From Caldilineaceae bacterium (GTDB lineage Bacteria > Chloroflexota > Anaerolineae > Caldilineales > Caldilineaceae): 64,000 nt of DNA. This document shows, in pieces, positions 12,865 to 28,362 of the stretch. Each line of letters opens with the position of its first letter. Within the stretch, counting starts at the first letter, position 1. The notes beneath the pieces are model-generated. The model had not been told where the DNA came from and searched no databases. It was given only the letters and a program-made list of their open reading frames with translations. Position numbers and translations under genes: made by a program. The stretch spans positions 2,517,598 through 2,581,597 of the forward strand of contig OY729430.1 in assembly GCA_963422415.1 (NCBI GenBank), read 5' to 3'.

Positions 12865-13848
12865 TCAGGGCTCCAGAATTACCTTTATGAGATCCAGTTC
12901 ACCCTTGGCCAACCCCTCGATGATGGCTGGCCCCTCCTCGAGGGGAGCCACCTGTTCAATCAAGGGGGCCACATCCAGGAGACCCGCGTCAATGGACTGG
13001 ATCACCTTCTCGAATTCATCGGAAAACCCATATGTGCCCGCGACAGTGATTTCCCGAGTCACCACTTCCTGCATGTTGACCTCGATCATGAGATCGCTGT
13101 TGCCTATCCACGTCACATGCCCCCCCACTCTGACCATGGCGTGGGCCTGCTGCACCGACTTGGACAGCCCCACGGCCTCAATTGCCACGTCCGCTCCGAT
13201 CTGGCGGGTTATGTCCATAATCCTTGCTACAGGGTCTTCATCCCTGACATTGATGGCCACATCCGCCCCGGCACGGCGTGCCGCCTCCAATCTGCGCTCG
13301 CTCATGTCTGTCACGACAATGGTGCCAGCCCCGCCTAGACGGGCACACAGCATCGCCAGCAAGCCGATGGCGCCGGCGCCGACCACCACCACGGTGTCCA
13401 TAAGATCCAGAGGCGTGCGGGACAGTGCATGCATGGCAATCGAAAGAGGTTCGCACATGGCAGCCTGATGCCAAGTCATGCCTTCCGGCTTGGGGTACAG
13501 CATGGACTTGTGCACACGCACCAAGTCTGCATAGGCCCCTTGCGCATTGACCCCCAGCACATCTCGTTGTCCTATCCCGTCATAGGGAAACAGAGGCGAG
13601 ACAATGACTTCATCCTCTTCTTCCACACCCCTGACATTGCTGCCCAGAGCTGCCACAACGCCACTGAATTCATGGCCCATGATCATGGGAGGAGTACGCC
13701 GGCCGGTACTTCCAGTGTATCCGTGAACATCGGATCCGCAGATGCCCACGGCTTTGACACTGACCAAGACATCATCTGTAGCAAGCTCCGGCGGAGAGGC
13801 CTCGCTGACCTGCATATGCCAAGGAGCGGTGTAAAGCAGTGTCTTCAT
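12865..13848 (-). CDS. MDR-family dehydrogenase lacking the four-Cys structural-zinc lobe
   Basis: GICGSDVHGY, GHEFSGVVAALG, GAGAIGLL. The usual CxxCxxC...C segment is replaced by SPLFPYDGIGQRDVLG. Confidence 0.8.
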   Translation of the reverse strand: MKTLLYTAPWHMQVSEASPPELATDDVLVSVKAVGICGSDVHGYTGSTGRRTPPMIMGHEFSGVVAALGSNVRGVEEEDEVIVSPLFPYDGIGQRDVLGVNAQGAYADLVRVHKSMLYPKPEGMTWHQAAMCEPLSIAMHALSRTPLDLMDTVVVVGAGAIGLLAMLCARLGGAGTIVVTDMSERRLEAARRAGADVAINVRDEDPVARIMDITRQIGADVAIEAVGLSKSVQQAHAMVRVGGHVTWIGNSDLMIEVNMQEVVTREITVAGTYGFSDEFEKVIQSIDAGLLDVAPLIEQVAPLEEGPAIIEGLAKGELDLIKVILEP

Positions 13849-14329
13849 TGAGATGCATCCTGTTGAAAACCGGCAGGATCAGCAAGGTCAAAGGCTACCC
13901 ACCTCGACGGCATGTCCTGTCCAAGGCATGTGCGACTTCAAACGGATCGAACCGCACTGATCTTGGCAGCACCCCAATTGTAACCGTCTCGCGCAGGCAA
14001 AGGGCCAAGCCTCCGTGCCTTGAAAGTCTTGCAGTTCACCTTTGCCCGTCAAGAGATCCTCCTCAATCTCATTTCAATCCAGGCTGCTTGGCAGCACAGA
14101 CACCAGCCTTGCCTGCCCAAGAACCATTTATGACGCCGTGCAAGAGACAGATTTGAGATCCATCCTAGGGACACCCCATTTCCTGTTTGTCCTTTGGATG
14201 AAGACCTGAAAGTTTCCTTGCACAGGGCAAGGCAGTGCAGATCTCAATATCCTTAACGTCGCCGAAATTTGGCAAGCCATGGAGCATCACGGCCTTCATA
14301 AGCCTGGTCAGGTTTTCCCTCGTTTTCAA

Positions 14330-15124
14330 GCGTCTGAGGCATTCCTTTCAAGTTGGACTTTCACCGACTGCACGCGAGCGAAGGCGACGTGCGTGACGCG
14401 TTGCGTGCGGAGCAGATGACAGACCACTGTCGGAATGGCAGCAGGCTCGTGGAGACAGTCGGCGCGAGATTCTGCTGCCATGGTCAGTGGATGGAGGGAC
14501 AGGTCCATGCTGGGATAGGTCACGAGGTCATTGACCGAGAATGTGGCACGGCAATCCTGTCTGTCCCATGCATTGGCGACACAGTCATCAAGGTGGTTTG
14601 CAATTGTCAAACTGTCACTTGCAGTCGTCCTGATGCAAACAGCCCGAAATTGGTTTTGAGCATGCCTGCGCGTCCATCTGTCACAGGTGAAACAGGAAGG
14701 CAACAAGAAACGATGCAAAGATTGTTCTCGCTGCCAGCACAGCAGCGAGAACAATCTCTCGGCATTCCTCGTAGGGCATCTCACTGGCTCCCTGCAAGCG
14801 CAAGGCTTGGGATCGCATGCCGGGTCTAGACTCTGGCACCATCCTTCTGACACCGCATGCGATAGCCACGGCCCCACAGGGGTTTGTCGGCGCAGTTGCA
14901 TATGAAATCCGCTGCCGTGCGCTCAATCCCATGGAGCGTTCATCCGGACGGAGTATCCAAACAAGAATCCATGCAGATTCCCACGATTGCATTGGCTGTC
15001 GAGCTATTCCCATGCCAGACAGCTGCGAAAGCAGCCGCTCTCTTTCATGTTCCGTCGGCGGCCAAGGCCAGCGCGTAGACTTGACGGCCCTAAGGCTGTG
15101 CCGTGGCAGGTGCACAGCAAGCAA
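14330..15124 (-). pseudogene. Possible relic of an IS630/Tc1-like transposase N-terminal (HTH) region - very tentative
   Basis: Minus-strand frames give PPTEHERERLLSQLSGMGIARQPMQSWESAWILVWILRPDERSMGLSARQRISYATAPTNP...ESRPGMRSQALRL. After a frame change they give RWTRRHAQNQ...CRATFSVNDL. This loosely follows the IS630 pattern (LSxEERxxLExL...ARIVLL..G.S...IA..LGVS..TV...RPRSGRP...HWS.R.LA...FKLSNDP). Judged by eye only. No intact ORF or terminal repeats were identified. Confidence 0.15.
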
Positions 15125-15312
15125 ATCGACACGTCGTTATGCCCCGTATGCAAGCAAAGGTCCAAGTGCGAAGCCGTTGAGCACTTGGCCTAGGCTGTCC
15201 ACAGAGCAGCGCGACGCTGATGAAGATCGAAATGTCGGGACACTGCCATCGTCAGCTTCTGGCCGGACAGATGCAGTGTGTGCAAAACCGAGCCCTTCTG
15301 GCAGCAGGATAG

Positions 15313-18300
15313 TCAGTGCGTGATCTGCTGGCGGCAGTCCAGACAACTGGCTGGCAGTGCAACCAGCTGGCCGCTATGGTCCAGAAACAGTCTTTCCAGC
15401 GGGGACAGATCCACGAAGAAGTCTGCCGGAATCGTGGCCAGCTGAGGGGTGCGCCAAATCAACGTGCGCAATGCGGCAAGATCGGCCAACAGATCCTCCG
15501 GTACCGTTGTCAGACGGTCACTCGACAGATACAGATTCTGCAGCTGGGAGAGTCCCGCGAAGAGATTCGGTGGCAGAGCAACCAGATCAACTATATCGGC
15601 CATCGACGTGTCATCCATCCTCAAATCGGTGCCCAGACACAGCATCTGCAGGGCCCCCAAGTCGGCGAAGAGACCCGCCGGCAGTGTGGACAGCTTGGTA
15701 TTGCACAGATTCAGTTTCTGCAGGGCGTCCAGCCCGGCAAAGAGACCCGCCGGCAGCGCAGTCAGCGCCGTGTTGCCACTCAGATACAGCGTCTGCAGGG
15801 CGTCCAGCCCGGCAAAGAGACCCGCCGGCAGGGCAGTCAGCGCCGTGTTGCCACTCAGATACAGCGTCTGCAGGGCGTCCAGCCCGGCAAAGAGACCCGC
15901 CGGCAGCGCAGTCAGCGCCGTGTTATCTCTCAGATTCAGTTCCTGCAGGGCGTCCAGCCCGGCAAAGAGACCCACCGGCAGGGTAGTCAGCGCCGTGTTG
16001 TCATTCAGATACAGCGTCTGCAGGGCGTCCAGCCCGGCAAAGAGACCCACCGGCAGGGTAGTCAGCGCCGTGTTGTCACTCAGATACAGCGTCTGCAGGG
16101 CGTCCAGCTCGGCAAAGAGACCCACCGGCAGGGTAGTCAGCGCCGTGTTGTCACTCAGATACAGCGTCTGCAGGGCGTCCAGCTCGGCAAAGAGACCCAC
16201 CGGCAGGGTAGTCAGCGCCGTGTTGCCACTCAGATACAGCGTCTGCAGGGCGTCCAGCCCGGCAAAGAACTTCCTCGGAACCGCGGCCAGCTGGGGGGTG
16301 TACCAAGACAGCGTGTGCAACGCGGCAAGATCGGCCAATAGATCCTCCGGTACCGTTGTCAGACGGTTACTCGACAGACGCAGCGTCTGCAGGGCGTCCA
16401 GCTCGGCAAAGAACTTCCTCGGAACCGCGGCCAGCTGGGGAGTGTGCCAAGACAGCCTGTGCAACGCGGCAAGATCGGCCAATAGATCCTCCGGTACCGT
16501 TGTCAGACGGTTACTCGACAGACGCAGCGTCTGCAGGGCACTCAGTCCGGCAAAGAGATCTGGTGACAGGCGCTCCACTCTGGTGTCGTGCAGCTGCAGC
16601 GTCTGCAGGGCGTCCAGCCCGGCAAAGAGACCCGCCGGCAGGGTAGCCAGCACCTTGTTGCCGCGCAGATGCAGCGCCTGCAGGGCGGTTAGGCCGGCGA
16701 AAAGACCCACGGGTAGATGCTCCACTCTGGTGTCATGCAGATGCAGCGTCTGCAGGGTGTCCAGCCCGGCAAAGAGACCCGCCGGCAGGTGTTCCACTCC
16801 GGTGTCCTCCAGATGCAGCGTCTGCAGGGCGTCCAGCCCGGCAAAGAGACCCACGGGTAGATGCTCCGCTCCGGTGTCACTCAAATGCAGGGTCTGCAGG
16901 GCGTCCAGTCCAGCAAAGAGACCCGCCGGCAGCGCAGTCAGCACCTTGTTGCCGCGCAGATGCAGGGTCTGCAGGGCATCCAGCCCGGCAAAGAGACCCG
17001 CCGGCAGGTGCCCCACTCCGGTGTCCTCCAGATGCAGGGTCTGCAGGGTGTCCAGCCCGGCAAAGAGACCTACCGGCAGGGCAGTCAGCGCCGTGTTGCC
17101 GCTCAGATGCAGGGTCTGCAGGGTGTCCAGCCCGGCAAAGAGACCTACCGGCAGGGCAGTCAGCGCCGTGTTGCCGCGCAGATGCAGCGTCTGCAGGGCG
17201 TCCAGCCCGGCAAAGAGACCTACCGGCAGGGCAGTCAGCGCCGTGTTGCCGCGCAGATGCAGCGTCTGCAGGGCGTCCAGCCCGGCAAAGAGACCCGCCG
17301 GCAGCGCAGCCAGCTGATTGTAATCCAGATGCAGCGTCTGCAGGGTGTCCAGCCCGGCAAAGAGACCCGCCGGCAGCGCAGTCAGCGCCGTGTTGCCGCG
17401 CAGATGCAGCGTCTGCAGGGCGTCCAGCCCGGCAAAGAGACCCGCCGGCAGGTGTTCCACTCCGGTGTCCTCCAGATGCAGCGTCTGCAGGGCGTCCAGC
17501 CCGGCAAAGAGACCCGCCGGCAGGTGTTCCACTCCGGTGTCCTCCAGATGCAGCGTCTGCAGGGCGTCCAGCCCGGCGAAGAGACCCGCCGGCAGCGCAG
17601 CCAGCTGATTGTGACCCAGATCCAGCGTCTGCAGGGTGTCCAGCCCGGCGAAGAGACCCGCCGGCAGCGCAGCCAGCTGATTGTGACCCAGATCCAGCGT
17701 CTGCAGGGTGTCCAGCCCGGCAAAGAGACCCGCCGGCAGCGCAGCCAGCTGATTGTGACCCAGATCCAGCGTCTGCAGGGCAGTCAGGCCGGCGAAAAGA
17801 CCCGGCGGTAGCGCAGCCAGCTGATTGCGACGCAGATCCAGCGTCTGCAGGGCAGTCAGGCCTGCGAAATCATCAGCCCGCAGCTGACCCAAGTGGCTGT
17901 AGTGCAGATCCAGAGCGGTTACGCTTGCCAGCTGCGCTGCACCAACAGATGCACAGGTCTCCTGGCTCGTCAGTGCAGTCAAGGCGGATGCCACCACCTG
18001 CGCGCGCCCATGCAGGGGGCCGTCCTCGCACCACGCCTCGTTCGTAGTCCAAGCCAGTTTCGTCTCGTAGCGCAGATAGCCTGTGCCCTCTACCCGTTCA
18101 TCATCTACATAGCGCACGGCACCCTCCCGCGTCACCAGAAGTCCAAAGCTGCGTGCCGCTGCGGCCAAGTCCTGTCCTTGTACATCCACCGGATGGGCTA
18201 CCACCGTCCTGTTCACCCGGGTCACTGGCCGGTACCCAGCCGGCACCTTAAACAGATCGGTCGGCTCTTGGCGCGCATAATGCTGCACCGGCGAGCGCCA

Positions 18301-18501
18301 TGCAGCGATCGTAGCTGTCACTTGCATGCCTGTGCGCACCAAGCGGTAACTGCTCTCCCAATGCTCAGCCGGATGATCGTAGGCCCCCTGCGCTACCCAG
18401 GTTGGTGGCGATTCCGACGCCAGCCCCGGCCGGGCCAGCAGGGTCAAGGCCAGCAGCGTTCCCAGTGCCCAACACAGTATTCGGCTGATCCAAGTATGCA
18501 T
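15313..18501 (-). CDS. Secreted leucine-rich-repeat protein LRR1: signal peptide, ~120-aa uncharacterised X module, Cys-containing N-cap, ~35 LRRs of 24/25 aa
   Basis: Start moved to the ATG at 18499-18501 (MHTWISRILCWALGTLLALTLLARPGLA/SE, Sec-type signal) because GGAGAG lies 5 nt upstream. The ORF-track start at 18558 has no such support. I counted ~35 units of consensus LPAGLFAGLDALQTLxLxxNxLTA. The protein ends ...LPASCLDCRQQITH. Confidence 0.85.
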   Translation of the reverse strand: MHTWISRILCWALGTLLALTLLARPGLASESPPTWVAQGAYDHPAEHWESSYRLVRTGMQVTATIAAWRSPVQHYARQEPTDLFKVPAGYRPVTRVNRTVVAHPVDVQGQDLAAAARSFGLLVTREGAVRYVDDERVEGTGYLRYETKLAWTTNEAWCEDGPLHGRAQVVASALTALTSQETCASVGAAQLASVTALDLHYSHLGQLRADDFAGLTALQTLDLRRNQLAALPPGLFAGLTALQTLDLGHNQLAALPAGLFAGLDTLQTLDLGHNQLAALPAGLFAGLDTLQTLDLGHNQLAALPAGLFAGLDALQTLHLEDTGVEHLPAGLFAGLDALQTLHLEDTGVEHLPAGLFAGLDALQTLHLRGNTALTALPAGLFAGLDTLQTLHLDYNQLAALPAGLFAGLDALQTLHLRGNTALTALPVGLFAGLDALQTLHLRGNTALTALPVGLFAGLDTLQTLHLSGNTALTALPVGLFAGLDTLQTLHLEDTGVGHLPAGLFAGLDALQTLHLRGNKVLTALPAGLFAGLDALQTLHLSDTGAEHLPVGLFAGLDALQTLHLEDTGVEHLPAGLFAGLDTLQTLHLHDTRVEHLPVGLFAGLTALQALHLRGNKVLATLPAGLFAGLDALQTLQLHDTRVERLSPDLFAGLSALQTLRLSSNRLTTVPEDLLADLAALHRLSWHTPQLAAVPRKFFAELDALQTLRLSSNRLTTVPEDLLADLAALHTLSWYTPQLAAVPRKFFAGLDALQTLYLSGNTALTTLPVGLFAELDALQTLYLSDNTALTTLPVGLFAELDALQTLYLSDNTALTTLPVGLFAGLDALQTLYLNDNTALTTLPVGLFAGLDALQELNLRDNTALTALPAGLFAGLDALQTLYLSGNTALTALPAGLFAGLDALQTLYLSGNTALTALPAGLFAGLDALQKLNLCNTKLSTLPAGLFADLGALQMLCLGTDLRMDDTSMADIVDLVALPPNLFAGLSQLQNLYLSSDRLTTVPEDLLADLAALRTLIWRTPQLATIPADFFVDLSPLERLFLDHSGQLVALPASCLDCRQQITH
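15690..17880 (-). repeat. In-frame 72/75-bp tandem repeats encoding the LRR1 units, with runs of near-identical copies
   Basis: For example, the unit ggcgtccagcccggcaaagagacccgccggcag...cagatacagcgtctgcag recurs every 75 bp through ~15760-16260 with only a few substitutions. 72-bp versions run through ~17290-17870. A 144-bp double unit is duplicated at ~16270-16560. Confidence 0.9.
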
Positions 18502-19107
18502 CTGCTCTCCTGTCGATCGTGGCCAACTCCCATTGTATTGCACACGGTGACACGACAATCGAGTAGGGCAACCTCAGACGAGAGACGACCCGGAGAGTGC
18601 AGTGGAGGATAAGTCTCCAAGTGCGCAAGCCACCATGAAACCGGTGTCAGTCACAGCGTCTGGGTTCCAAGCAGATACGAAATTACCTAATATGCATATG
18701 CACCTGTCGGCAATACTGACCGAAGAGGCCAAACCACAAACCAAGGTGATCTGATCGGCATCTCTGGCGTGACACGGACAACTCCGAAGCCCCGCACCTG
18801 TGTATGCATGACAAGCCCTATGACTTTTAATCCGTACAACACAAAGGTTTTGGGAGCGCCGAGAAATTTCAGGCCTGTTTGTCCAATTAAACGACATCAC
18901 CATTCAGAACAGAGAGGTCGACTGCCTAGAGTGTTTGATTTGTCTCGTCACTGATCGCGTTATATGCAATGGCGTTCCAATAGCATAAGTGTTTTCCATC
19001 AACAAACACTTGAAATCTTGGCCACCATTGAAAAATGTAGAGACGAGAGCGAATGGAAGTGGACAGAGGCAGGATATTCAGGTTGGTATTAGGTCAGTGA
19101 CGGGAAA

Positions 19108-19142
19108 GGGGCATAGATTCGGGATCCTCCAGTCTATGCCCC
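19108..19142 (-). terminator. Stem-loop ~30 nt downstream of the M23/FN3 gene stop (candidate intrinsic terminator)
   Basis: GGGGCATAGA (19108-19117) pairs with TCTATGCCCC (19133-19142), with a 15-nt loop. On the minus strand it is followed by TTTCCCG, which is only a short U tract. Confidence 0.45.
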
Positions 19143-19170
19143 TGGTTTGAGAGCTTGGATCTGGATAAGC

Positions 19171-22100
19171 TCAGGCAGGCAGAATCAGGACGTGACCGCC
19201 GGGTTCGGGATTGGACCAAGGACCGGCGCCCAAGGCATTGACTGCCTGTACCGAGTAGTACCAGGTGCCATCTACAGTTGGAGCGGCCTCGACATAGGAA
19301 GTGTCCTGTACACGCTCGGTACGCAGCGCATAGGGCTGGTTCCGGCTGGCCAGACGACGGCGCACGCGGTAGTGGGTGACGGGTCGGCCGCCGTCGTGAG
19401 TGGGGGCGGTCCAAGTCAGAGTCACTTGGCCACCAGCCAGACGCACCGTGCCCGCGCCCACCGCAGCGGGGGATGTGCCCACCTGCAGCACGTGACCGCT
19501 GGTTTCAGGATTGGACCAGAGGCTGTCCCCTAGGGCATTGACGGCCTGCACCGAGTAGTACCAGGTGCCGTCCACAGTTGGAGCGGCCTCGACATAGGCA
19601 GTGTCCTGCACGCGCTCGGCACGCAGCGCATAGGCCTGATTCTGGCTGGCCAGACGGCGGCGTACCCGATAGTGGGTGACAGGGCGACCACCGTCGTGGG
19701 TGGGAGCGGTCCAAGTCAGGGTCACCTGGCCACCGGCCAGACGCACCGTGCCCGCGTCCACCGCGCTCGGGGGCGTGCCTACCTGCAGCACGTGACCGCT
19801 GGTTTCGGGATTGGACCAAGGGCTGTCTCCCAAGGCGTTGACCGCCTGTATCGAGTAATACCAGGTGCCATCCACAGTTGGAGCGGCCTCGTCATAGGCG
19901 GTGTCTGGCACGCGTACAGCACGCAACGCATAGGCTTGGTTCTCACTGGCCAAACGTCGGCGCACCCGATAGTGGGTGACAGGGCGACCACCATCGGCAG
20001 CAGGAACGGTCCAAGTCAATGCAACCCGGCCGCCGTACAGGTGCACGGTCCCGGCTCCCACCACCCCTGGGGATGCTGCCGCGGTCACCACCGAGACTGG
20101 AGCCGAGCGGATCCCGGCTGCTGCGGCATGGTGACCTTGCACCGCATAGGCATAGGCTGTGGCCGGAGCCAAATCATGCCGGTCACGCCACTGCGTCAGG
20201 GTCTCTCCCGTGTCCGGCACGTGCCGAACCCAAGATCCTGATGTTCCAACGCGCCGCCACACCCGATAGCCGTGTACCGGCCCGCCGCCGGCTGGCGCCC
20301 GCCAACGCAGCTGCACGTGAGGCCCCACCGCCTCCGCCGTCAGATCCCGGGGCTGTCCAGGTGGAGGCAGTGGGGCAGCCGACGTAGCTACCTGCACTAC
20401 CCCCGAGGGCACCCCCGCCCCCGCCGCGTTCAGGGCGCGCACGCGCAGCAGGTAGACCGTAGCCGCGGCCAGCCCCGTCAGCATGTGCCGCGTGCGCGTG
20501 GACCCCGTGTCCTGCACCAACGCGCGCCAGACCGAACCCGTCCACCGCTCAAGACGGTAGCCCTCAATGCGGGCCCCGCCATTGTGAACCGGCCGGCTCC
20601 AATCCAGCGTGGCCGTGGTGGCCTCAAGACCCTCCGCCTGCAGATTCTCCGGCGCGGCTGGCGGTTGCACCCGCGCCGCTGCCGTCCATCGCACCCGGGC
20701 CGTGTAGCGCAGGTAGCCCACGTGATCCAGCTCCGGCCCGTCCACGTAGCGCACCGCCCCGTCTTGCCCTACTGTCAGATCGAAGCGGGCGGGCAGGCCG
20801 CTCACGTGGTCCGTGCCGTCCGTGTTCACGCGTCGGCCGTCCGGCACCGTGTGCCGGTATTGGCGGGCCGGGCGCAACTCCGCCGGCAGCACGCATAGGT
20901 TTGCCGGATTCTGTCGCGCCGCGTACTGCACCGCCGAGCGCGTGCTGCCCAAGGTACCGGTCACCGTGTTCCCCCGTCGCGTCAGGTCGTAGCGGCCCTC
21001 CCAGTGCACCGCCCGGTTCTGAAAGTGGCCTTGGCGGTTCAGGTCTGGCTGCGAGATCGGCGTCGCCAGCGCCGCCGCCGTCTGCCACTCCAGACCCGTG
21101 ACCTGGTAGGCCAAGTACCCGACATGATCCACCTGATGGTCATTCAGGTAGCGCACCGCCCCGTCTTGCCCGACCGTCAGATCGAAGCGGGCGGGCAGGC
21201 CGCTCACGTGGTCCGTGCCATCCGTGTTCACGTGTCGGCCGTCCGGTACCGTATGCTGGACCGGAGCCGTGGGTCGGAACCCCGCTGGCAACACAAACAG
21301 ATCCTCAGGCCGTTGGCGGGCGTAGTACTGCACCGGAGAGCGGACGCTGCCGAAACTTGCCGTCACCGTGGTATCCCGTTTCGACACCGCCCATCTGCCC
21401 TCCCAGTTCGTGGCCAGATTCAGGTAGCGCCCCGACGCCCTTTGCACGCCACCCGGCGGTGGCGTCGGCATCTCAGGACCCGGCGGCGTGGGTTGCTCCA
21501 CCTGCACCGTGGGCACCTTTGACAGAGTTCCCGACGTCACTACGAAGTTCCTGCTGACCCAACCCGGCATTGCAGTGCGATACTGAATCTGCCACCAGGC
21601 AGGTGTCTCCGCATCCTTGCCCACAATCGGGTACACGGTCCGGTCCGCCAGGCGACCCACCTCTGCATGCACCGTGCTCGGCCCCGAACGCACCGGCAGG
21701 GGCGTGGACACGTCTGTTGCCTCCGCGGACAACACGGCGGACACGATCCTATCCATGTCCGCCCCGGCCAGCGCCTCCGGATCGGCGATCAGACGCGGGT
21801 CGCGCAACGTGCTGACCCGCGTCCCGGTATCGCCCGTCACAGTCACCTGATTCATCCGCACCCAACCGACCTCTTCCTTGGATCGCTCGATTTGCCACCA
21901 ACGTCGTTCGTACCGGATGCCAGGAGGGCCGACATGATCTCGTTGAGAGTGCGCAGGCATATAACGTCCGTCGTGGCCCACAAGGGCATAGGTGCCAGGG
22001 GCCAGCTTGTCAAGGCGATGCTCATCCGTGTTGTCATACGGTTTGCTGTACACATGCACTGTCGTGCCCGCCTTCACCTGCACTTCTGGACAGGACCCCG

Positions 22101-22671
22101 GCGAGATGTTGGAGTTTAGACAATGTCTGTTGATTGCCTGAGGTATGCCACTGGTATCGTTTGTAATCGCATCCCAATTGTATGGGTGCCCCACCAGAAA
22201 ATTCTTGAAATCCCGGCCTCCATTGAAATCATCTCCTATGCCTACAACCCCTTCCTTATTGTATGTCCTGTATCGCACATGCAGGTGCGAGACATCAGTG
22301 TTCGTGCGACCGGAAACACCGATCAGATCACCTTGCTTCACACCTTCTTGGCCCTTCTCAACCAGCAGCACCGACAGGTGTGCATAGGCCAGTTCAAACC
22401 CGCCGCTCGCATCGTCTTCCCGTGCCGTGCGGATGGTGATGTAGTTGCCATAGTTATTCCCTGGATCCCTTAGTGCCTTGTGGACATAGCCTGCAGCCAT
22501 GGCATGGATGGGCGTGCCCGTGCAGCAGCCCCAATCGATGCCTTCGTGGCCCTCCTGTTCAAATTCTTGATAAAGTTCTCTTGTGGCAGGATCATTGAAT
22601 ATATTTGTAATTGTCCAGTTTTCGCCCGGCCGAAACGGTAGTCCTAGTTCGAGGGTTTCATGGGATGTCAT
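19171..22671 (-). CDS. Giant multidomain protein: M23 (LytM-type) metallopeptidase, 2 x SH3b-like, Pro-rich linker, 2 x X module, 5 x fibronectin type III; no recognisable signal peptide
   Basis: AAGGAGA lies 7 nt upstream of the ATG. M23 motifs are HEGIDWG (HxxxD) and DVSHLHV (HxH), at aa ~35-140. SH3b-like segments are VKAGTTVHVYSKP...RRWWQIE...GWV and LPVRSGPS...PAWWQIQY...GWV. X modules are at aa ~415-532 and ~545-665. FN3 units run from aa ~668 (APENLQAEGLEATTATLDWSRP...GYRLERW...YLLRVRALNAAG) to aa 1160. Confidence 0.85.
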   Translation of the reverse strand: MTSHETLELGLPFRPGENWTITNIFNDPATRELYQEFEQEGHEGIDWGCCTGTPIHAMAAGYVHKALRDPGNNYGNYITIRTAREDDASGGFELAYAHLSVLLVEKGQEGVKQGDLIGVSGRTNTDVSHLHVRYRTYNKEGVVGIGDDFNGGRDFKNFLVGHPYNWDAITNDTSGIPQAINRHCLNSNISPGSCPEVQVKAGTTVHVYSKPYDNTDEHRLDKLAPGTYALVGHDGRYMPAHSQRDHVGPPGIRYERRWWQIERSKEEVGWVRMNQVTVTGDTGTRVSTLRDPRLIADPEALAGADMDRIVSAVLSAEATDVSTPLPVRSGPSTVHAEVGRLADRTVYPIVGKDAETPAWWQIQYRTAMPGWVSRNFVVTSGTLSKVPTVQVEQPTPPGPEMPTPPPGGVQRASGRYLNLATNWEGRWAVSKRDTTVTASFGSVRSPVQYYARQRPEDLFVLPAGFRPTAPVQHTVPDGRHVNTDGTDHVSGLPARFDLTVGQDGAVRYLNDHQVDHVGYLAYQVTGLEWQTAAALATPISQPDLNRQGHFQNRAVHWEGRYDLTRRGNTVTGTLGSTRSAVQYAARQNPANLCVLPAELRPARQYRHTVPDGRRVNTDGTDHVSGLPARFDLTVGQDGAVRYVDGPELDHVGYLRYTARVRWTAAARVQPPAAPENLQAEGLEATTATLDWSRPVHNGGARIEGYRLERWTGSVWRALVQDTGSTRTRHMLTGLAAATVYLLRVRALNAAGAGVPSGVVQVATSAAPLPPPGQPRDLTAEAVGPHVQLRWRAPAGGGPVHGYRVWRRVGTSGSWVRHVPDTGETLTQWRDRHDLAPATAYAYAVQGHHAAAAGIRSAPVSVVTAAASPGVVGAGTVHLYGGRVALTWTVPAADGGRPVTHYRVRRRLASENQAYALRAVRVPDTAYDEAAPTVDGTWYYSIQAVNALGDSPWSNPETSGHVLQVGTPPSAVDAGTVRLAGGQVTLTWTAPTHDGGRPVTHYRVRRRLASQNQAYALRAERVQDTAYVEAAPTVDGTWYYSVQAVNALGDSLWSNPETSGHVLQVGTSPAAVGAGTVRLAGGQVTLTWTAPTHDGGRPVTHYRVRRRLASRNQPYALRTERVQDTSYVEAAPTVDGTWYYSVQAVNALGAGPWSNPEPGGHVLILPA
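19192..20091 (-). repeat. Three tandem 300-bp (100-aa) near-identical FN3-coding repeats
   Basis: The copies begin near 19189, 19489 and 19789 (cacgtgaccgctggtttc[ag]ggattggacca...gagta[ga]taccaggtgcc). Protein unit: VLQVGT..AGTVRLAGGQVTLTWTAPTHDGGRPVTHYRVRRRLAS.NQ.YALR.ERVQDT.YVEAAPTVDGTWYYSVQAVNALG...SNPE..GH. Confidence 0.9.
20677..21429 (-). repeat. Tandem duplication encoding the two X modules (period ~402 bp), with a ~105-bp almost identical core
   Basis: 20746-20850 and 21148-21252 match: gtagcgcaccgccccgtcttgccc..gtcagatcgaagcgggcgggcaggccgctcacgtggtccgtgcc.tccgtgttcacg.gtcggccgtccgg. They differ at only a handful of positions. Confidence 0.85.
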
Positions 22672-22800
22672 GCGATATCTCCTTATGCATGGAACAGACT
22701 AGGACGGTACTCTATGTCATTCCGTGCATGTCCGCCATTGCCATCGCGTGGTAGCCGCGTCACTGCAGCGTAGAGCTGTCCGATCCAAATCGCACCCAAA

Positions 22801-22832
22801 GCCCGTTCCATGCCAAGAGGCATGGAACGGGC
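22801..22832 (-). terminator. Perfect 14-bp GC-rich hairpin plus T tract, ~130 nt upstream of the M23 gene and ~570 nt downstream of LRR2
   Basis: GCCCGTTCCATGCC aaga GGCATGGAACGGGC. On the minus strand it is followed by TTTGGGTGCGATTT. It could be the LRR2 terminator, the end of an unannotated RNA, or a leader element of the M23 gene. Confidence 0.5.
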
Positions 22833-23401
22833 AGAGACATCCATCCACGGTAGAGGATGTCAGAACCCATAGTCAAGTCAGATACAAATCAAGGCTTTCC
22901 TGCCAGTCTGTGCCTTCCAACTCTACGCCTGATGTCAGCTACTGGATTACAAGGCTCAGCGGGAAGCATAGGTCGGCGATGTAGTGCAGACAAGCATTTT
23001 TCATAGCAAAAACCACAGTGATTCACTCGGTCCGCTGGACCAGATCCCGCCGAATCGGCTGAGAGTGTAAGTCAAGAAGTCTGTCGGCAGTGATGTCACA
23101 TAGTGAGCAGCTAGGCACACCGAGACCAGATCCAGATTACGGGTCAGCAAGTATCCCAGACGCGCACCGTCCAGTCCCTAGAGAGCCATTCCCACCATTA
23201 CAGCAGGGATGAGTTCCAGCCTTAGGTTGTAGCTGGATCCTCGTCTACTTCACCATTACACAACAGCATCTTCTCTGATTGCTTCCTGTACCCCTACATG
23301 CGCAGACCTGCGGTGACAATCCACTCAACAACCAAAAGTCAGGGCTGTGCGGCAGGCACTCGCTTGTCACTGTTGACAGGGACAGCACTCAGAACATGAA
23401 C

Positions 23402-26320
23402 TTAGGGGCAGACCAGCACATCGTTCCAATATTCGCCCTCGAGCATATGCGCGGGTAGGCAAATCAAAGGGTTGTCGTACATGTACAGCTTTCGCAATTG
23501 GAGAAGGTCGGCAAAGAGACCCACCGGTAGCGTAGCCAAGTAGTTGTTTCTCAATTCCAGCGTTTGCAGTTCGGAGAGGCCGGCAAAGAGATCTTCAGGT
23601 AGCGCAGCCAGTTGGTTGAAACTCAGATCCAGCATTTGCAGTTCGGAGAGGCCGGCAAAGAGATCTTCAGGCAGCGCAGCCAGTTGGTTGGAACTCAGAT
23701 ACAGCGTTTGTAGTTCGGAGAGACCCGCGAAGGCATTCGGCGGCAGATCAGCCAATCTGTTGCGGAGCAGATCCAATCTGCGCAAAGCCGTGAGGTCGGC
23801 AAAGAGATCTTCAGGCAGCGCAGCCAGTTGATTGGAACTCAGATACAGCGTTTGCAGTTCGGAGAGACCCGCGAGGAGATCTTCAGGCAGCGCAGCCAGT
23901 TGATTGGAACTCAGATACAGCGTTTGCAGTTCGGAGAGACCCGCGAGGAGATCTTCAGGCAGCGCAGCCAGTTGGTTGGAACTCAGATCCAGCGTTTGCA
24001 ATTCGGAGAGACCCGCGAGGAGATCTTCAGGCAGCGCAGCCAGTTGGTTGGAACTCAGATCCAGCGTTTGCAATTCGGAGAGACCCGCGAGGAGATCTTC
24101 AGGCAGCGCAGCCAGTTGGTTGGAACTCAGATCCAGCGTTTGCAGTTCGGAGAGGCCCGCGAAGAGATCCGCTGGCACTGCAGCTAGTTGGTTGGAACTC
24201 AGATCCAGCGTTTGCAGTTCGGAGAGACCCGCGAGGAGATCTTCAGGCAGCGCAGCCAGTTGGTTGGAACTCAGATCCAGCGTTTGCAGTTCGGAGAGGC
24301 CCGCGAAGAGATCCGCTGGCACTGCAGACAGTTGATTGTGGCCCAGCTCCAGCGTTTGCAATCTGGAGAGATCGGCGAAAAAATCCGCTGGCAGCGTATT
24401 CAGTCGGTTGAAGCGCAGATCCAGTGTCTGCAGTTTGGAGAGATCGGCGAAGAGACCTGCCGGCACTGCAGCCAGTGAGTTGTAGTCTATCTCGCTGGAG
24501 TGAAAGGCCCTCGGATCCCGAGGACCCAAAATCAGCGACTGCAGGTCTGTCAGACCTGCAAAAAGACCGGGCGGCAGCGTATCCAGTTGCTCGCTGTACA
24601 GTGTCAGCGATTGCAGTGCAGCCAAGTCCATAAAAAGATCGGACGGCAGCACGCTTAGGTTCAAAAGGGACACTTCCAGCGACTGCAGGTCTGTCAGACC
24701 TGCAAAAAGACCGGGCGGCAGCGTATCCAGTTGCTCGCTGTGCAGTGTCAGCGATTGCAGTGCAGCCAAGTCCATAAAAAGATCGGACGGCAGCGCGCTT
24801 AGGTTGGAAAGGAACAGCTTCATCGATTGCAGATCCCTCAAGCCGGTGAAAAGGTTGGACGGCAGCATGCGCGGGTTCGGCAGGGAAGGCTCCACCCACA
24901 GCCATATGGCATCGTGAGCGTAACGGTCTATAAGGGGAGAAGGCGACCGCGGGGAAAAGGAAGGAATGGCATCAATGTCGTACAGTTCCAGCGATTGCAG
25001 GGCGGCCAGGTCGGAGAAAAGACCCGACGGCAGGGCAGCGGCAAAGTTGTACAGTTCCAGCGACTGCAGGGCGGTCAGGTCGGAGAAAAGACCCGACGGC
25101 AGGGTACCAGCAATGTTGTACAGTTCCAGCCATTGCAGGGCGGCCAGGTCGGAGAAAAGACCCGACGGCAGGACGGTCACGTGGGGAATGAACAGTTCCA
25201 GCGATTGCAAATCCGACTGATCGGCGAAGAGATCCGATGGCAGGACGGTCACGTGGGGAATGAACAGTTCCAGCGATTGCAAATCCGACTGATCGGCGAA
25301 GAGATCCGGCGGCAGGGCCGTCATGGCACTGCTGAACAGATGCAGCTCTTGCAGTTGGGAGAGCCCAGTGAAAAGACTTGGTGGCAAGGCTGTCAGATCG
25401 AGATTATGCTCCATTATGCGAGGACCGCCGCGTCCAGTACCCAACCACAGCTGCTGCAGACTAGCAAGGGGTACGAAGAGATTCTCAGGCAGAACAGTCA
25501 ACCGGGTATAGCGCAAATGCAGGGTGTGCAGGTGGTCTAGCCCAACAAACGACTCGGGTGCTAGAGTCGTCAGTTCGGTGAAGTTCAGATTCAAGGTGTG
25601 CAGCCGGGAGAGACCGGCGAAAAGGCCCACTGGCAGAGTGGTGAGTCTGCTGTATCTTAGATCCAAGCTATGCAAGACCGTAAGCCCAGTAAAGAGATCG
25701 GATGGCAGGGTAGGCGCGGTGCTGTACAGCTTCAGCGTTTGCAGGGCGGTCAGGTCAGAGAAAAGGCTGGCTGGTACGGTGTCAACGCTGTGCAGCTTCA
25801 GCGTTTGCAGTCCGGAGAGGCCCGCGAAGGCATTCGGCGGCAGATCGGCCAATCTGTTGCGGAGCAGATCCAATCTGCGCAAAGCCGTGAGTCCAGCGAA
25901 GAGATTCGGGGGCAGAGCAGTCAAGTTGTTATCCCTCAGATCCAAGCTGTGCAAGGCTGTGAGCCCGGCAAAATCACCGGTCTGTAGGACGCGCAGGCTC
26001 CTTCCTCTCAGATTCAAAGCAACAATGGCCGACAGGTGTGCCGGAGTGATCTGGGCGCAGACCAGGCCGGTCTGCGCCTCCAGTGCATTCACTATCCCTT
26101 GCGTGCGTCCATGCAGAGGACCGGTGCCACATCCCTCTTCGTCCGTGAACCGGACCGGGGTCACCGTAGCTGTCTGTTCCCCCTTGGGGTTGTCTGCATA
26201 GAATGCCACTCCGTCCGATCCCAAAGTCAAGTCCAGGCTGTGCTCCGCCGGATCGGACCACTCCAGACTCATGCCCAAGTACAGCGACACCACCAACATC
26301 CACCGCATGTACACTTGCAT
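23402..26320 (-). CDS. Leucine-rich-repeat protein LRR2 (paralogue of LRR1): short hydrophobic N-terminus, truncated X-module remnant, Cys N-cap, ~34 LRRs, Cys-containing C-cap
   Basis: Start moved to the ATG at 26318-26320 (MQVYMRWMLVVSLYLGMSLEW...) because GGAGGTG lies 4 nt upstream. GCGTGPLHGRTQGIVNAL...VCAQI parallels WCEDGPLHGRAQVVASAL...TCASV of LRR1. Repeat units include LSELQTLDLSSNQLAALPEDLLAG. The C-terminus is YDNPLICLPAHMLEGEYWNDVLVCP. Confidence 0.85.
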   Translation of the reverse strand: MQVYMRWMLVVSLYLGMSLEWSDPAEHSLDLTLGSDGVAFYADNPKGEQTATVTPVRFTDEEGCGTGPLHGRTQGIVNALEAQTGLVCAQITPAHLSAIVALNLRGRSLRVLQTGDFAGLTALHSLDLRDNNLTALPPNLFAGLTALRRLDLLRNRLADLPPNAFAGLSGLQTLKLHSVDTVPASLFSDLTALQTLKLYSTAPTLPSDLFTGLTVLHSLDLRYSRLTTLPVGLFAGLSRLHTLNLNFTELTTLAPESFVGLDHLHTLHLRYTRLTVLPENLFVPLASLQQLWLGTGRGGPRIMEHNLDLTALPPSLFTGLSQLQELHLFSSAMTALPPDLFADQSDLQSLELFIPHVTVLPSDLFADQSDLQSLELFIPHVTVLPSGLFSDLAALQWLELYNIAGTLPSGLFSDLTALQSLELYNFAAALPSGLFSDLAALQSLELYDIDAIPSFSPRSPSPLIDRYAHDAIWLWVEPSLPNPRMLPSNLFTGLRDLQSMKLFLSNLSALPSDLFMDLAALQSLTLHSEQLDTLPPGLFAGLTDLQSLEVSLLNLSVLPSDLFMDLAALQSLTLYSEQLDTLPPGLFAGLTDLQSLILGPRDPRAFHSSEIDYNSLAAVPAGLFADLSKLQTLDLRFNRLNTLPADFFADLSRLQTLELGHNQLSAVPADLFAGLSELQTLDLSSNQLAALPEDLLAGLSELQTLDLSSNQLAAVPADLFAGLSELQTLDLSSNQLAALPEDLLAGLSELQTLDLSSNQLAALPEDLLAGLSELQTLDLSSNQLAALPEDLLAGLSELQTLYLSSNQLAALPEDLLAGLSELQTLYLSSNQLAALPEDLFADLTALRRLDLLRNRLADLPPNAFAGLSELQTLYLSSNQLAALPEDLFAGLSELQMLDLSFNQLAALPEDLFAGLSELQTLELRNNYLATLPVGLFADLLQLRKLYMYDNPLICLPAHMLEGEYWNDVLVCP
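23550..24480 (-). repeat. In-frame 72-bp tandem repeats (about 13 units, several nearly identical) encoding LRR2 units; further block duplications up to ~25990
   Basis: Unit: cagccagttggttggaactcagatccagcgtttgca[ag]ttcggagagacccgcgaggagatcttcaggcagcg. A 144-bp double unit is duplicated at ~24540-24830. Another duplicated unit lies at ~25176-25310 (FADQSDLQSLELFIPHVTVLPSDL x2). Confidence 0.9.
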
Positions 26321-26997
26321 TGTCCACCTCCGAGACGTCGCTGGTCCCAAGGCTGGAAGATCTCCTGGAGACTGGTCTACGTCGCCTTGCCAGAGTGTTA
26401 CGAATTCTGAATCAAACAAGGGCTATCGGTGATTCCATAGCCTCAAGGTCAGTCCCAATCCGGTCCTTGGATCCTATTGATGATATAGTGTCGGCTTCTT
26501 TCTGTAGCCTTGTCGCAGGTGACATATCTGCCGACACTCGACCGTACACTAGTCTCCGCGGTCACTGAGGGGATAGCTGGGAGGGACAAGGGCCAACAAG
26601 TGTCCACGTCCGTTGACTTCCCTCATGCTTCAATGCGCGCATCGTCCCATCCGCACCAACGTGCCATCGGCAGTTCAATAGTCTCGCGGATACCCTCAGC
26701 TTTTTGGCGCTGGTTCAGGACATCCTCTGCAGCAGAATCCGGCAGAGAAGACGCGCTGACCTGCATGTGTCAAGGAAGAGTATGAAGCAGAGACTTTTTC
26801 CACAGTGTCAGAGGTCTCTTTACAAGCACGAGGGCAGGAGGATCGACCAGAACTGCACCTGCAAGCCAAAGATTGCATTTCAGGACCGCTCGGCCTACCT
26901 CACCTGCGTTGCCTGTCGATGAACCTATATTCATTCGTCTTTCGTTTATCCTTTGGGGCCAAGATTCTCTTGAACAGGGCAAGGCAACAACCAGACG

Positions 26998-28362
26998 ATG
27001 CAGCTCTCAAGACCCTCAATGTCACCGAAGATCGGCAAGCCGTTGCTCATTGCGGCCATCATCGCGGTCCCCACGCTTTTGGTTGGTTTCTTCTTTGTCT
27101 TCAATCTGTACCTGAAGCCCTTGATGCAAGTCTGTCCCAAGAACTGCCAAGGAGCGGACTATGAAGGGCAAGTCCTCCTTGGACAATCGTTCAAGAACTT
27201 TGACCTTTCTCACGCAAACATGCCGCGGACAATCGCCAGAGAGGCGGATTTCAGCGGAGCCAATCTCCATTTCGCCAATCTCTCTCATGCGGATCTGAAC
27301 GGAGCGGATTTCAGGAGATCCGATCTCTCCGCTGCCCTGCTGACACACGCGGATCTGCGGAATGCCAATCTGGCTGGCAGCCGACTTGGCGGGGCCAGAC
27401 TGTACGGAGCGGATCTGAGACATGCCGATTTGAGAGGCTCCATCCTAGGCTCGGCGGATCTGTCTCAAGCCTTGTTGCAGGGATCCATCATTGACGAAAA
27501 GACCGTATTGAGCGGCCATTGGGAACGCATTTGGCATCTCTGGAACGACTCCGATCCAGATCTGGATCTGGAAGGCGCCAGTCTGTCCCGAGCCAATATG
27601 CAAGGATACGACTTCGGTCCAGCCAATCTCAGACATGCCCGTCTGCGAGACACGAATCTCAGCGGGGCCAACCTCTCCGAGGCCGACCTGGAAATGGCAG
27701 ACTTGCGTCAATCCGTGATTGACGACTCCACTCGCCTTGCGCCGCGGGACCGCTTGGTATGGGAAATGCACAACGCTCCAAGCGTATCTCCGGATTATGC
27801 CAACGTGGTCGTAACCAATGCCCTGCTGTCCGAAATATATCTGCAGAATGCCAACCTGCAAGGGGCAGTGTTCCGAGATTCCATCTTGACATTTGCCAAT
27901 CTGCGGAATTCCGATCTACGGGGGGCGGACTTTTCCGGAGCCAACATGACAGAGGCGGATCTTGACGGGGCCCTTTTGACGGACACCATTCTATCCGGCG
28001 CGAATCTGCATGGGGCCGAGATGGGATTCAGCAACCTGCGGGGCGCCATCATTGACACCGACACCGTCCTGCCGGAGAGATGGCTTGTTGTCTGGACCAT
28101 CTTGAATCACGGGGGTGAGGGGGGAGATTACTCTGGTCTGTTTCTGGGCAGCGCCGACTTGGCTGGCGCCGCCTTGCAAAACGCCAATTTCACGGAGGCT
28201 GATCTCCGCTTTGCCGTACTGGCCGGAGCCGATCTCCGCAATGCAAACTTCACCGATGCCATCTTGACCTCGACGGATTTCACCGATGCGCTGCTGACCG
28301 GAGCCATTTTTTCCGGCGCAGATCTGTCCAACGCAGTCGGCTTTGTGCCTGAAGGGAAGTAG
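26998..28362 (+). CDS. Pentapeptide-repeat protein with a single N-terminal transmembrane anchor
   Basis: MQLSRPSMSPKIGKPLLIAAIIAVPTLLVGFFFVFNLYL has basic residues before the helix, which predicts N-in topology. After it come long runs of A(D/N)LxG/A(N/D)Fxx pentapeptides (ADFSGANLHFANLSHADLNGADFRRSDLSAALLTHADLRNANLAG...). An alternative start at 27019 (MSPK...) is possible. Confidence 0.85.
   Translation: MQLSRPSMSPKIGKPLLIAAIIAVPTLLVGFFFVFNLYLKPLMQVCPKNCQGADYEGQVLLGQSFKNFDLSHANMPRTIAREADFSGANLHFANLSHADLNGADFRRSDLSAALLTHADLRNANLAGSRLGGARLYGADLRHADLRGSILGSADLSQALLQGSIIDEKTVLSGHWERIWHLWNDSDPDLDLEGASLSRANMQGYDFGPANLRHARLRDTNLSGANLSEADLEMADLRQSVIDDSTRLAPRDRLVWEMHNAPSVSPDYANVVVTNALLSEIYLQNANLQGAVFRDSILTFANLRNSDLRGADFSGANMTEADLDGALLTDTILSGANLHGAEMGFSNLRGAIIDTDTVLPERWLVVWTILNHGGEGGDYSGLFLGSADLAGAALQNANFTEADLRFAVLAGADLRNANFTDAILTSTDFTDALLTGAIFSGADLSNAVGFVPEGK

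Follow-up and report, generated by a model that had tools for sequence, protein, structure and literature searches.

Within the window analyzed here, the whole 64,000-nucleotide stretch of a Caldilineaceae bacterium genome (contig OY729430.1), four large genes were located between a zinc-alcohol dehydrogenase/sugar-isomerase cluster, which ends at position 13848, and an oligopeptide-type ATP-binding cassette (ABC) transporter, whose substrate-binding protein (SBP) gene starts at 28649. The three genes of the minus strand encode a leucine-rich repeat (LRR) protein (LRR1), a giant M23 peptidase carrying SH3b-like and fibronectin type III (FN3) domains, and a second LRR protein (LRR2), and a divergent gene encodes a pentapeptide-repeat protein (Table 1). 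A first-pass annotation of this DNA had proposed these four genes, with their coordinates and domains, and they were confirmed by open reading frame (ORF) listing, translation and Pfam; the flanking clusters that it had placed on both sides (a polyol cluster up to 13848 and an ABC locus from 28649) were also found. It had further linked the three minus-strand proteins through an uncharacterized module, which is called X here. This module turned out to be an undescribed domain family, present in giant predicted wall hydrolases and in secreted LRR proteins whose genes are conserved neighbors.

A rare domain family shared by predicted wall hydrolases and LRR proteins

The X region of LRR1 (aa 37–153) matched the two X copies of the M23 protein, X1 and X2, at BLASTP E-values of 5e-20 and 4e-19, with identities of 43 and 41%, respectively. 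LRR2 gave a pairwise E-value of 0.023 with the X copies of the M23 protein. When LRR2 was aligned to LRR1, the last ~45 residues of X were seen to be retained, followed by the same two-cysteine LRR cap, and LRR2 appears from this alignment to have lost two thirds of X. Hence, the sharing announced for all three minus-strand proteins held for LRR1 and the M23 protein, but in LRR2 only a truncated remnant of the module was present.

No sequence match to X was found in Pfam, NCBIfam or the PDB. The exhaustive search of 1.84 billion representative proteins with a profile made of six X copies recovered 258 clusters at E ≤ 1e-3, a number that fell to 82 at E ≤ 1e-30, versus the 2–3 relatives given by a word-indexed protein search. 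The named members of these clusters were “hypothetical proteins” of the Caldilineaceae bins SB0661/SB0662. The architectures of 151 listed X proteins were then classified with local hidden Markov models (HMMs), and 40 members were analyzed with Pfam. Only two multidomain architectures were observed among the classified proteins, the remainder being X-only chains, mostly short. In the first one, an M23 domain or a probable glycosidase is followed by SH3b, two X copies and a series of FN3 domains, in chains of up to 3662 aa that lack a signal peptide. In the second one, the chain starts with a signal peptide or lipobox and continues with X, in one to four copies, and then with the LRRs. These export signals were confined to the X-LRR class, where all members carried them, sometimes followed by a Pro/Thr-rich linker. 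Among the 40 proteins analyzed with Pfam, fn3 was detected in 20, LRR_8 in 10, M23 in 10 and SH3_3 in 9 (best E-value 7e-44).

The X copies clustered by position and class, as hydrolase X1, hydrolase X2 and LRR-type, with identities of 0.41–0.49 within a class and of 0.30–0.36 between hydrolase-type and LRR-type copies. A recent exchange of X between neighboring genes was rejected, since this grouping reveals an old split and thus an old family. X represents a genuine family of ~120-aa all-beta domains, rare and so far undescribed.

Conserved linkage of hydrolase and LRR genes

In all of the M23-type loci sampled (14 of 14, from nine species-level genomes), an LRR gene was located immediately upstream of the hydrolase gene and divergent from it. 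The LRR partner carried X in ten of these loci (L004–L007, L009–L011, L042, L047, and L054), and neither X nor SH3b in three (L037, L040, and L044). The partner at locus L023 (4063–7059, minus strand) was a lipobox-SH3_3-LRR protein, in which an SH3b domain (31.3 bits, above the cut-off) occupied the place where X sits elsewhere; this natural domain swap suggests that X and SH3b may do the same job. The linkage of hydrolase and LRR genes is thus conserved. The claim that the juxtaposition in the window was not random was borne out both by the significance of the X similarity (E 5e-20) and by the LRR-M23 linkage in these 14 loci of nine genomes; when co-occurrence was checked across genomes, the hydrolase and LRR homologs were found linked.

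Many X-LRR genes were solitary or arrayed, with four to six consecutive genes at L027:2–12454 and L029:3301–20358, and X-LRR is a strongly expanded paralogous family. Four X loci were also seen within 545–628 kb of OZ242330.1.

The distribution of X was analyzed by scanning 185,579 species, each represented by a single genome, with the motif RSPVQ[YH][FYW]AR. A total of 52 X loci was detected, all of them in Caldilineaceae, Anaerolineales or “Chloroflexi” metagenome-assembled genomes (MAGs), some of which held ten or more of these loci. The best identity to X1 of the window was 61%, and therefore the species of the window was outside the scanned set. Among 241 million metagenome records, the sole matches were four contigs of MKWU01, a metagenome of the sponge Aplysina aerophoba (PMC5649159). 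LRR genes have been previously noted as a eukaryotic-like feature of sponge Caldilineae in a work that does not mention FN3 (PMC6306507). The first-pass annotation had missed this context, i.e., that of a lineage-restricted family of sponge-associated Caldilineaceae, whose LRR “eukaryotic-like proteins” were already recognized (PMC6306507).

Predicted fold of X

An AlphaFold2 model of X1, based on a 52-sequence alignment, reached a pLDDT of 97.7 and a pTM of 0.89. When the PDB was searched with Foldseek, the top 24 matches were all receptor-binding protein (RBP) heads of the lactococcal phages TP901-1 and p2, with E-values of 3e-4 to 5e-3 and template modeling (TM) scores of 0.51–0.58; an earlier and shallower model of X had given the same fold matches. 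The similarity of X to solved RBP heads was thus above a TM of 0.5, and reached 0.63 with predicted phage proteins. The best match in BFVD was annotated as a phage receptor-binding protein (E 1.5e-5, TM 0.62) and several others as tail proteins, many matches being unannotated and a few coming from giant viruses.

At the sequence level, no match to X was obtained in 50,697 INPHARED phage genomes (tblastn) or in 2.9 million IMG/VR viral contigs, and a phage origin of X at this level was rejected on these grounds. The PHROG families gave weak matches to X, one to an uncharacterized family (4e-5) and another to a minor tail protein (7e-3). X is small and all-beta, as are the lactococcal RBP heads (TP901-1 ORF49 and p2 ORF18; 2f0c, 4ios, 2bsd, and 1zru), but its identity to them is just 12–15%, with no match in the phage sequence collections, and it lacks the shoulder and neck that drive trimerization of the lactococcal RBPs. 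Furthermore, unlike these heads, X occurs in tandem within one chain, fused to LRRs or to a hydrolase, and in a cellular genome. Since phage RBP heads bind saccharides of the host wall, the simplest reading of the model is that X would be a glycan-binding module. The SH3b domain that stands in for X in the LRR partner of L023 is a separate hint in the same direction.

The giant hydrolase and its relatives

The catalytic domain of the hydrolase scored 60.2 bits with PF01551 (cut-off 28.7 bits; E 2.3e-16), and both M23 motifs, H42EGID46 (HxxxD) and H129LH131 (HxH), were intact, from which an active-looking endopeptidase is predicted. The M23 part was also matched by PHROG endolysin and tail-lysin families. 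Regarding the SH3b domains, copy 2 scored 26.9 bits with SH3_3, just below the 27-bit cut-off, and copy 1, used as a query, detected SH3 regions in relatives. The hydrolase was identical to a database protein (P0004), and its sequence was present in a collection of 15 billion proteins, from which the exact LRR1 and pentapeptide protein sequences were absent.

A signal peptide would not fit in front of the hydrolase, because the stop-to-stop ORF reaches just nine codons upstream of the start. In most members of the hydrolase class, a conserved M-x(1-8)-HGL(S/T) segment was seen directly before the M23 domain, and none had a signal peptide; the N-terminus of the window protein (22620–22671, minus strand) reads MTSHETLELGL, without an exact HGL. 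This conserved segment could be a pro-segment or an unrecognized export tag.

A relative with 64% identity to the window hydrolase, P0003, is encoded on the same 3.47-Mb contig. In this protein and in P0005, P0006, and P0025, the SH3-X-X-FN3 chassis carries another N-terminal domain of ~400 aa in place of M23. The motifs YWVxANE and VIVSEYG of this alternative domain, together with weak matches to the glycoside hydrolase (GH) families GH2 and GH5 (E ~0.01), indicate that it is probably a glycosidase of clan GH-A. The glycosidase-type relatives have three X copies per chain.

LRR and FN3 arrays

LRR1 showed no domain other than X, the cap and the LRRs when analyzed with Pfam, and a Sec-type signal was present. 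LRR_8 matched it in 23 stretches (6e-208), and a weak LRR_EndoS match was obtained at aa 174–250, overlapping the N-cap region that the alignment showed to be common to LRR1 and LRR2. In a motif count, 35 matches were found in LRR1, the first one lying inside the signal peptide, and three 25-mers were exactly repeated. Tandem LRR_8/LRR_4 matches with a LxxLxLxxN-type core were observed in both LRR proteins, which hold ~34 and ~29 repeats, respectively. The repeats belong to the “typical” class of 24 residues, and the arrays have Cys caps. No LPXTG motif was present at the C-terminus of either protein.

Tandem Repeats Finder (TRF) resolved the LRR1 array into 30 copies of a 72/75-bp unit (80% match over 15640–17853, within a repeated region of 15640–17913), and the LRR2 array into 12.8 copies of a 72-bp unit (83% match) plus other blocks (23556–25323). 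The FN3 array contained 2.8 copies of a 300-bp unit (85% match, 19186–20018), and the last three FN3 domains are a recent 300-bp tandem amplification. Overall, the DNA units repeated in tandem within the LRR and FN3 arrays are nearly identical (80–93% match), and several of the protein repeats are exact copies, which indicates a recent intragenic expansion. The description of the region as fast-evolving fits both these 72–75-bp and 300-bp tandem repeats and the large X-LRR paralog arrays of L027 and L029. Terminator-like matches inside LRR1 were discarded as artifacts of the repeat unit.

Neighborhoods of the related loci

Holin genes of family PF05105 (E 1e-22 to 1e-24) adjoined ORFs with X or SH3b at L009:5752–6183 (plus strand), L047:2353–2784 (plus) and L017:5774–6196 (minus), and a partial copy was found at L007:2449–2592; a holin was thus seen in three to four of about 14 related loci. 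Through such neighboring holins the hydrolases, which have no signal peptide, could be exported.

Additionally, a protein of ~270 aa with an OmpR-type Trans_reg_C domain (E 1e-6 to 1e-9) adjoined hydrolase/LRR loci in several genomes (Table 1). Its N-terminal part looked receiver-like by inspection, and Pfam found no receiver domain in it. This protein may be a dedicated regulator; it was absent from the window (tblastn E > 0.1).

The flanks of L004–L047, comprising 105 ORFs, were rich in eukaryote-type repeat genes, RCC1 (four) and WD40 (two), and in genes of defense type, AAA_21/AbiEii-like (five) and Type ISP restriction; the Trans_reg_C regulator and the PF05105 holins were also among the recurrent families, and no phage structural family was found among the 25 most frequent Pfam families of these ORFs. 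The neighborhoods of the related loci look like variable accessory regions.

Other features of the window

Each minus-strand gene was preceded by its own strong Shine-Dalgarno (SD) sequence, as had been described, located 3 nt (GGAGAG, LRR1), 6 nt (AAGGAGA, hydrolase), and 4 nt (GGAGGTG, LRR2) before the ATG. The spacers were 1464, 669, 730, and 677 bp long. They were indeed poor in ORFs and richer in AT (GC 0.50–0.55 versus 0.587 for the whole window), yet this low GC is ordinary for intergenic DNA, and the ORFs within the spacers looked non-coding. No significant match and no pseudogene relics were detected in them by six-frame HMM and BLAST searches with X, M23, SH3, FN3, and LRR queries.

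The pentapeptide-repeat protein scored 243 bits with PF00805 and 181.9 bits with the NCBIfam Alr5209-family model (cut-off 125). No homolog of it was found within ±6–10 kb in any of 54 independent related loci. The gene recurred only at L001, a Logan contig of 4658 bp (ERR11641160) that corresponds to the window at ~26.3–30.5 kb and carries the 5′ end of LRR2, the pentapeptide gene and the ABC SBP gene; this contig represents the same organism in another sequencing run, since the identity was 100% in every segment compared. On this basis the pentapeptide gene, which had been counted as part of the island, was rejected as a member of the module, and it is an unrelated neighbor.

The proposal that the island was horizontally acquired found no support either. 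The GC content at third codon positions (GC3) of the four genes, 0.65–0.74, was like that of the flanking housekeeping genes, 0.67–0.73, and a recent horizontal transfer was rejected on composition. The higher total GC of the LRR1 and M23 genes reflects amino-acid composition, as the excess is located at the first two codon positions. The window contained neither tRNA genes or Rfam elements nor phage structural or integrase features. PADLOC gave no hit, and a known defense system was rejected for this reason.

Table 1. Genes, domains and repeat arrays of the region, and regulator genes at related loci (positions of the window unless a locus is given).
Feature	Position	Strand	Evidence
LRR1 gene, secreted X-LRR protein, 1062 aa	15313..18501	-	ORF and translation; ATG at 18501, SD-supported
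LRR1 signal peptide, aa 1-28 (...ARPGLA/SE)	18418..18501	-	read from the translation by inspection; X-LRR relatives carry Sec/lipobox signals
LRR1 X module, aa 37-153	18043..18393	-	BLASTP against X1/X2 of the M23 protein; member of the X profile family
LRR1 Cys-containing LRR N-terminal cap/linker, aa 154-214 (C158, C183; GPLHGR)	17860..18042	-	LRR1-LRR2 alignment
LRR1 repeat array, ~34 repeats of 24-25 aa, 72/75-bp tandem DNA units	15352..17859	-	TRF, motif count
Giant hydrolase gene, 1166 aa, M23-SH3b-SH3b-X-X-FN3 (five), without signal peptide	19171..22671	-	ORF, translation, Pfam
Peptidase M23 catalytic domain, aa 41-138	22258..22551	-	Pfam PF01551; intact zinc/catalytic motifs
SH3b-like domain 1, aa ~196-285	21817..22086	-	related to SH3b domain 2 at E 2e-5; uncalled by Pfam
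SH3b domain 2, aa 325-377	21541..21699	-	Pfam SH3_3, E 5.5e-6
X copy 1 (X1), aa 411-533	21073..21441	-	BLASTP, profile, AlphaFold2 model, Foldseek
X copy 2 (X2), aa 545-666	20674..21039	-	BLASTP, profile; 60% identical to X1
Five FN3 domains, aa 668-1166	19174..20670	-	Pfam fn3, five stretches, 129.4 bits, 5.9e-38
LRR2 gene, 972-aa LRR protein, hydrophobic N-terminus, truncated X	23402..26320	-	ORF, translation, LRR_8 2e-131
LRR2 X remnant, aa ~20-62, C-terminal third only, then Cys N-cap	26135..26263	-	pairwise, global and multiple alignment
LRR2 repeat array, ~29 repeats, four exact copies of one 24-aa unit	23501..25963	-	TRF, repeat count
Pentapeptide-repeat gene, 454 aa, hydrophobic N-terminal anchor, divergent	26998..28362	+	ORF, Pfam Pentapeptide 8e-74
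Trans_reg_C regulator gene	L005:14367-15194	+	
Trans_reg_C regulator gene	L007:4063-4824	-	
Trans_reg_C regulator gene	L009:2707-3690	-	
Trans_reg_C regulator gene	L008:14342-15190	+	
Trans_reg_C regulator gene	L042:2260-3069	-	
Trans_reg_C regulator gene	L044:17453-18313	+	

Discussion

The reading that we favor, with a probability of roughly 45%, is that the region is one copy of a conserved module of sponge-associated Caldilineaceae, made of a hydrolase and X-LRR proteins, and that X targets both of them to the bacterium's own wall polymer. The first component is a very large, signal-less, predicted peptidoglycan hydrolase with an M23 head at the extreme N-terminus, two putative SH3b wall-binding domains, two X copies and a stalk of five FN3 domains. 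The second one consists of secreted LRR proteins, in which X forms the mature N-terminus and precedes a disulfide-type LRR cap and an array of about 30 repeats. X would deliver both to the same polysaccharide-bearing surface, most likely the bacterium's own wall or a secondary wall polymer; there, the LRR arrays would be exposed to the outside and offer “eukaryote-like” surfaces for the binding of sponge cells or matrix, and local remodeling of the wall would fall to the M23 enzyme. Export of the hydrolase would probably be independent of Sec, and might depend on holins. Predation, septum remodeling and a phage decoy, which the first-pass annotation had proposed, are candidate roles only.

There is precedent for such a sharing of a targeting module. 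In Listeria, the LRR surface protein InlB and the autolysins Ami and Auto share the non-covalent GW module, and in pneumococcus the hydrolase LytA and the surface proteins PspA and CbpA share choline-binding repeats, as the two protein classes share X here. LytA has no signal peptide, a trait that the window hydrolase has in common with it. However, neither the sequence nor the fold of X is related to that of GW, which is SH3-like, or of the choline-binding repeats; X precedes the LRRs instead of lying C-terminal to them; and the hydrolase and LRR genes are adjacent here as a conserved pair, unlike in those systems. The NCBIfam models of Listeria internalins were far from their cut-offs (internalin_H, 90–95 bits versus 1050; internalin_A, 73.5 versus 1600). 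As for export, signal-less proteins are secreted by the holin/peptidoglycan-hydrolase “type 10” route, e.g., with TcdE of C. difficile. The proteins exported in this holin-dependent way are likewise large and signal-less with a muralytic domain, and holins were found beside L009, L047, and L017; unlike phage cassettes, the window has no holin.

Several observations weigh against targeting of both components to the own wall. The gene order of the window differs from that of all the other loci, LRR2, the M23 gene and LRR1 lying on the same strand instead of forming a divergent pair, and the X of LRR2 is degraded. Some X-LRR relatives have a lipoprotein anchor and a Pro/Thr-rich linker, and with this anchor present X is dispensable for holding them on the cell; these lipoproteins fit a binding of X to something external at least as well as a binding to the own wall. 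The sharing of an anchor alone does not predict a strict gene adjacency. The match to the RBP fold is moderate (TM 0.51–0.63, 12–18% identity) and without a sequence link to phage. A sponge origin is documented for MKWU01 only and implied by the SB06xx bin names, but not for the OZ.../DAOU... MAGs. Finally, no holin homolog was detected in the 64-kb window (tblastn E > 0.4), and the hydrolase has no recognizable export signal.

An antibacterial weapon is an unlikely explanation, although several features speak for it. The hydrolase would then be a signal-less, lysostaphin-like bacteriolysin released by holins or lysis, X would recognize wall polysaccharides of competitors or prey in the manner of a phage RBP, and the X-LRR protein would be a cognate inhibitor or immunity factor directed to the wall of the producer itself, or a targeting adaptor. 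The head-SH3b core is laid out as in lysins of the lysostaphin/ALE-1 type and in phage endolysins, and the signal peptide is missing. The matches of the M23 part to endolysin and tail-lysin families agree with this, and so do the holin genes at some loci. A swappable catalytic head (M23, or the probable GH-A domain of P0003) on a constant SH3-X-X-FN3 part is typical of polymorphic lysins and toxins, and a secreted partner that is strictly encoded by the adjacent gene is reminiscent of effector-immunity pairs. Plant LRR proteins, the PGIPs, are known inhibitors of wall-degrading enzymes, so that an inhibitory LRR partner would have a parallel. Nevertheless, immunity proteins are usually small and specific, but the partners found here have 450–1100 aa and a widely variable number of repeats, and we know of no LRR immunity protein in bacteria. 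The X-LRR family is mostly located far from hydrolase genes (L019–L022, L027, and L029), the LRR2 gene beside the hydrolase has a broken X, and there was no secretion-system or trafficking domain and no PADLOC or toxin-family hit. Unlike in effector-immunity and polymorphic toxin systems, the catalytic domain is N-terminal, a trafficking domain is lacking, and the neighbor is a 1000-aa LRR protein. The window hydrolase also shares with the lysostaphin/ALE-1/LytM type an M23 domain with HxxxD and HxH followed by SH3b-like domains, but it is three to five times larger, with two X and five FN3 domains in addition and without a signal or pro-peptide; against the NCBIfam ShyA/MepM models it scored 38.6 bits, the cut-off being 700.

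Still less probable would be a host-directed set of eukaryotic-like proteins, in which sponge glycans or extracellular matrix are the target of X, recognition or phagocytosis is blocked by LRR and FN3 arrays that imitate matrix or receptor proteins of the host, and the M23 and SH3b domains have a secondary role such as the shedding or processing of muropeptides. The region does combine LRR and FN3 repeat domains in a sponge-associated bacterial lineage, and the X family was so far found in sponge-associated lineages and metagenomes only. LRR proteins are classed with the eukaryotic-like proteins of sponge symbionts, and LRR genes are pointed out for sponge Caldilineae in particular (PMC6306507). 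The typical 24-residue LRRs with Cys caps, the eukaryote-type repeat genes (RCC1, four; WD40, two) in the related flanks, and the lipoprotein versions, whose Pro/Thr-rich linker puts X and the LRRs at the outer tip, agree with such a role. On the other hand, an M23 endopeptidase and SH3b target bacterial walls and not animal matrix, the X of the partner is replaced in L023 by SH3b, a peptidoglycan binder, and no host-interaction data for LRR proteins of sponge symbionts were found in the literature examined. The known eukaryotic-like proteins of sponge symbionts (ANK, TPR, LRR) share with this region the setting and the repeat-rich, expanded and variable arrays; however, that literature counts repeat domains, and no X, X-LRR fusion or M23-SH3b-X-X-FN3 pairing was found in it. 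The models of type III-secreted LRR effectors were matched through the LRR part only and below their cut-offs (XopAC, 369 versus 450; XopL, 225 versus 500; SlrP, 181 versus 1113); moreover, LRR1 carries a Sec-type signal and no enzymatic effector domain.

A more speculative arrangement, to which we assign a low probability, is that X forms a (pseudo)trimer like the RBP heads, with two X copies from the hydrolase and one from the neighboring secreted LRR protein; in the glycosidase-type relatives, three X copies are already present in one chain. The LRR protein would then act as a replaceable subunit for recognition in a “guided lysin” that is cell-free and released by holins. If this were true, it would be a device like a phage tail tip built of cellular proteins, directed against specific neighbors or serving the remodeling of the own wall at sites of host contact.

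We give little credence to the absence of any functional unit, that is, to independent members of expanded repeat families brought together by chance in a variable region. X-LRR genes are numerous and often solitary or arrayed, the window is arranged differently from the other loci, LRR2 seems to be partly decayed, and the long spacers suggest separate transcription, all of which speaks for such a chance. It would leave unexplained that the LRR gene is immediately upstream and divergent in 14 of 14 sampled M23-type loci from nine species-level genomes, and that a domain exclusive to the two protein classes is common to both. A domesticated remnant of a phage tail fiber or lysin, or a receptor decoy or mask, with X derived from an RBP head in a tailocin-like part or in a coat blocking adsorption, is the least credible explanation, because although M23, FN3 and RBP-head-like X all occur in phage tail proteins, X has weak PHROG matches (4e-5 and 7e-3) and phage-type holins are near related loci, the window lacks phage structural, integrase and tRNA features, the 25 most frequent Pfam families of the 105 flanking ORFs include no phage structural one, X is without match in 50,697 phage genomes and 2.9 million viral contigs, PADLOC is without hit, and fusions to LRRs, a layout foreign to phages, account for most X copies.

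The M23, SH3b, FN3 and LRR parts, the enrichment of LRRs in sponge Caldilineae and the sharing of a targeting module were already known. What is new is the X domain, its confinement to a single host-associated lineage and there to two multidomain architectures, and the conserved pairing of hydrolase and LRR genes, which were absent from the libraries and literature searched. Likewise, the statement of the first-pass annotation that no system of this composition had been described agreed with the searches of Pfam, NCBIfam, PADLOC and the literature.

Studies of sponge microbiomes list LRR proteins as “eukaryotic-like” symbiosis factors without their mounting or partners, and a concrete unit is available here, in which X is the common element of the expanded LRR proteins of the lineage and of its giant signal-less wall hydrolases. 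If the “guided lysin” were the true explanation, it would represent a new kind of bacterial antagonism device. If, as we favor, X anchors or targets these proteins, the display of host-facing repeats on a Chloroflexota envelope would become testable, the ligand of X could be searched for, and X would provide a handle for cataloging such proteins in metagenomes.

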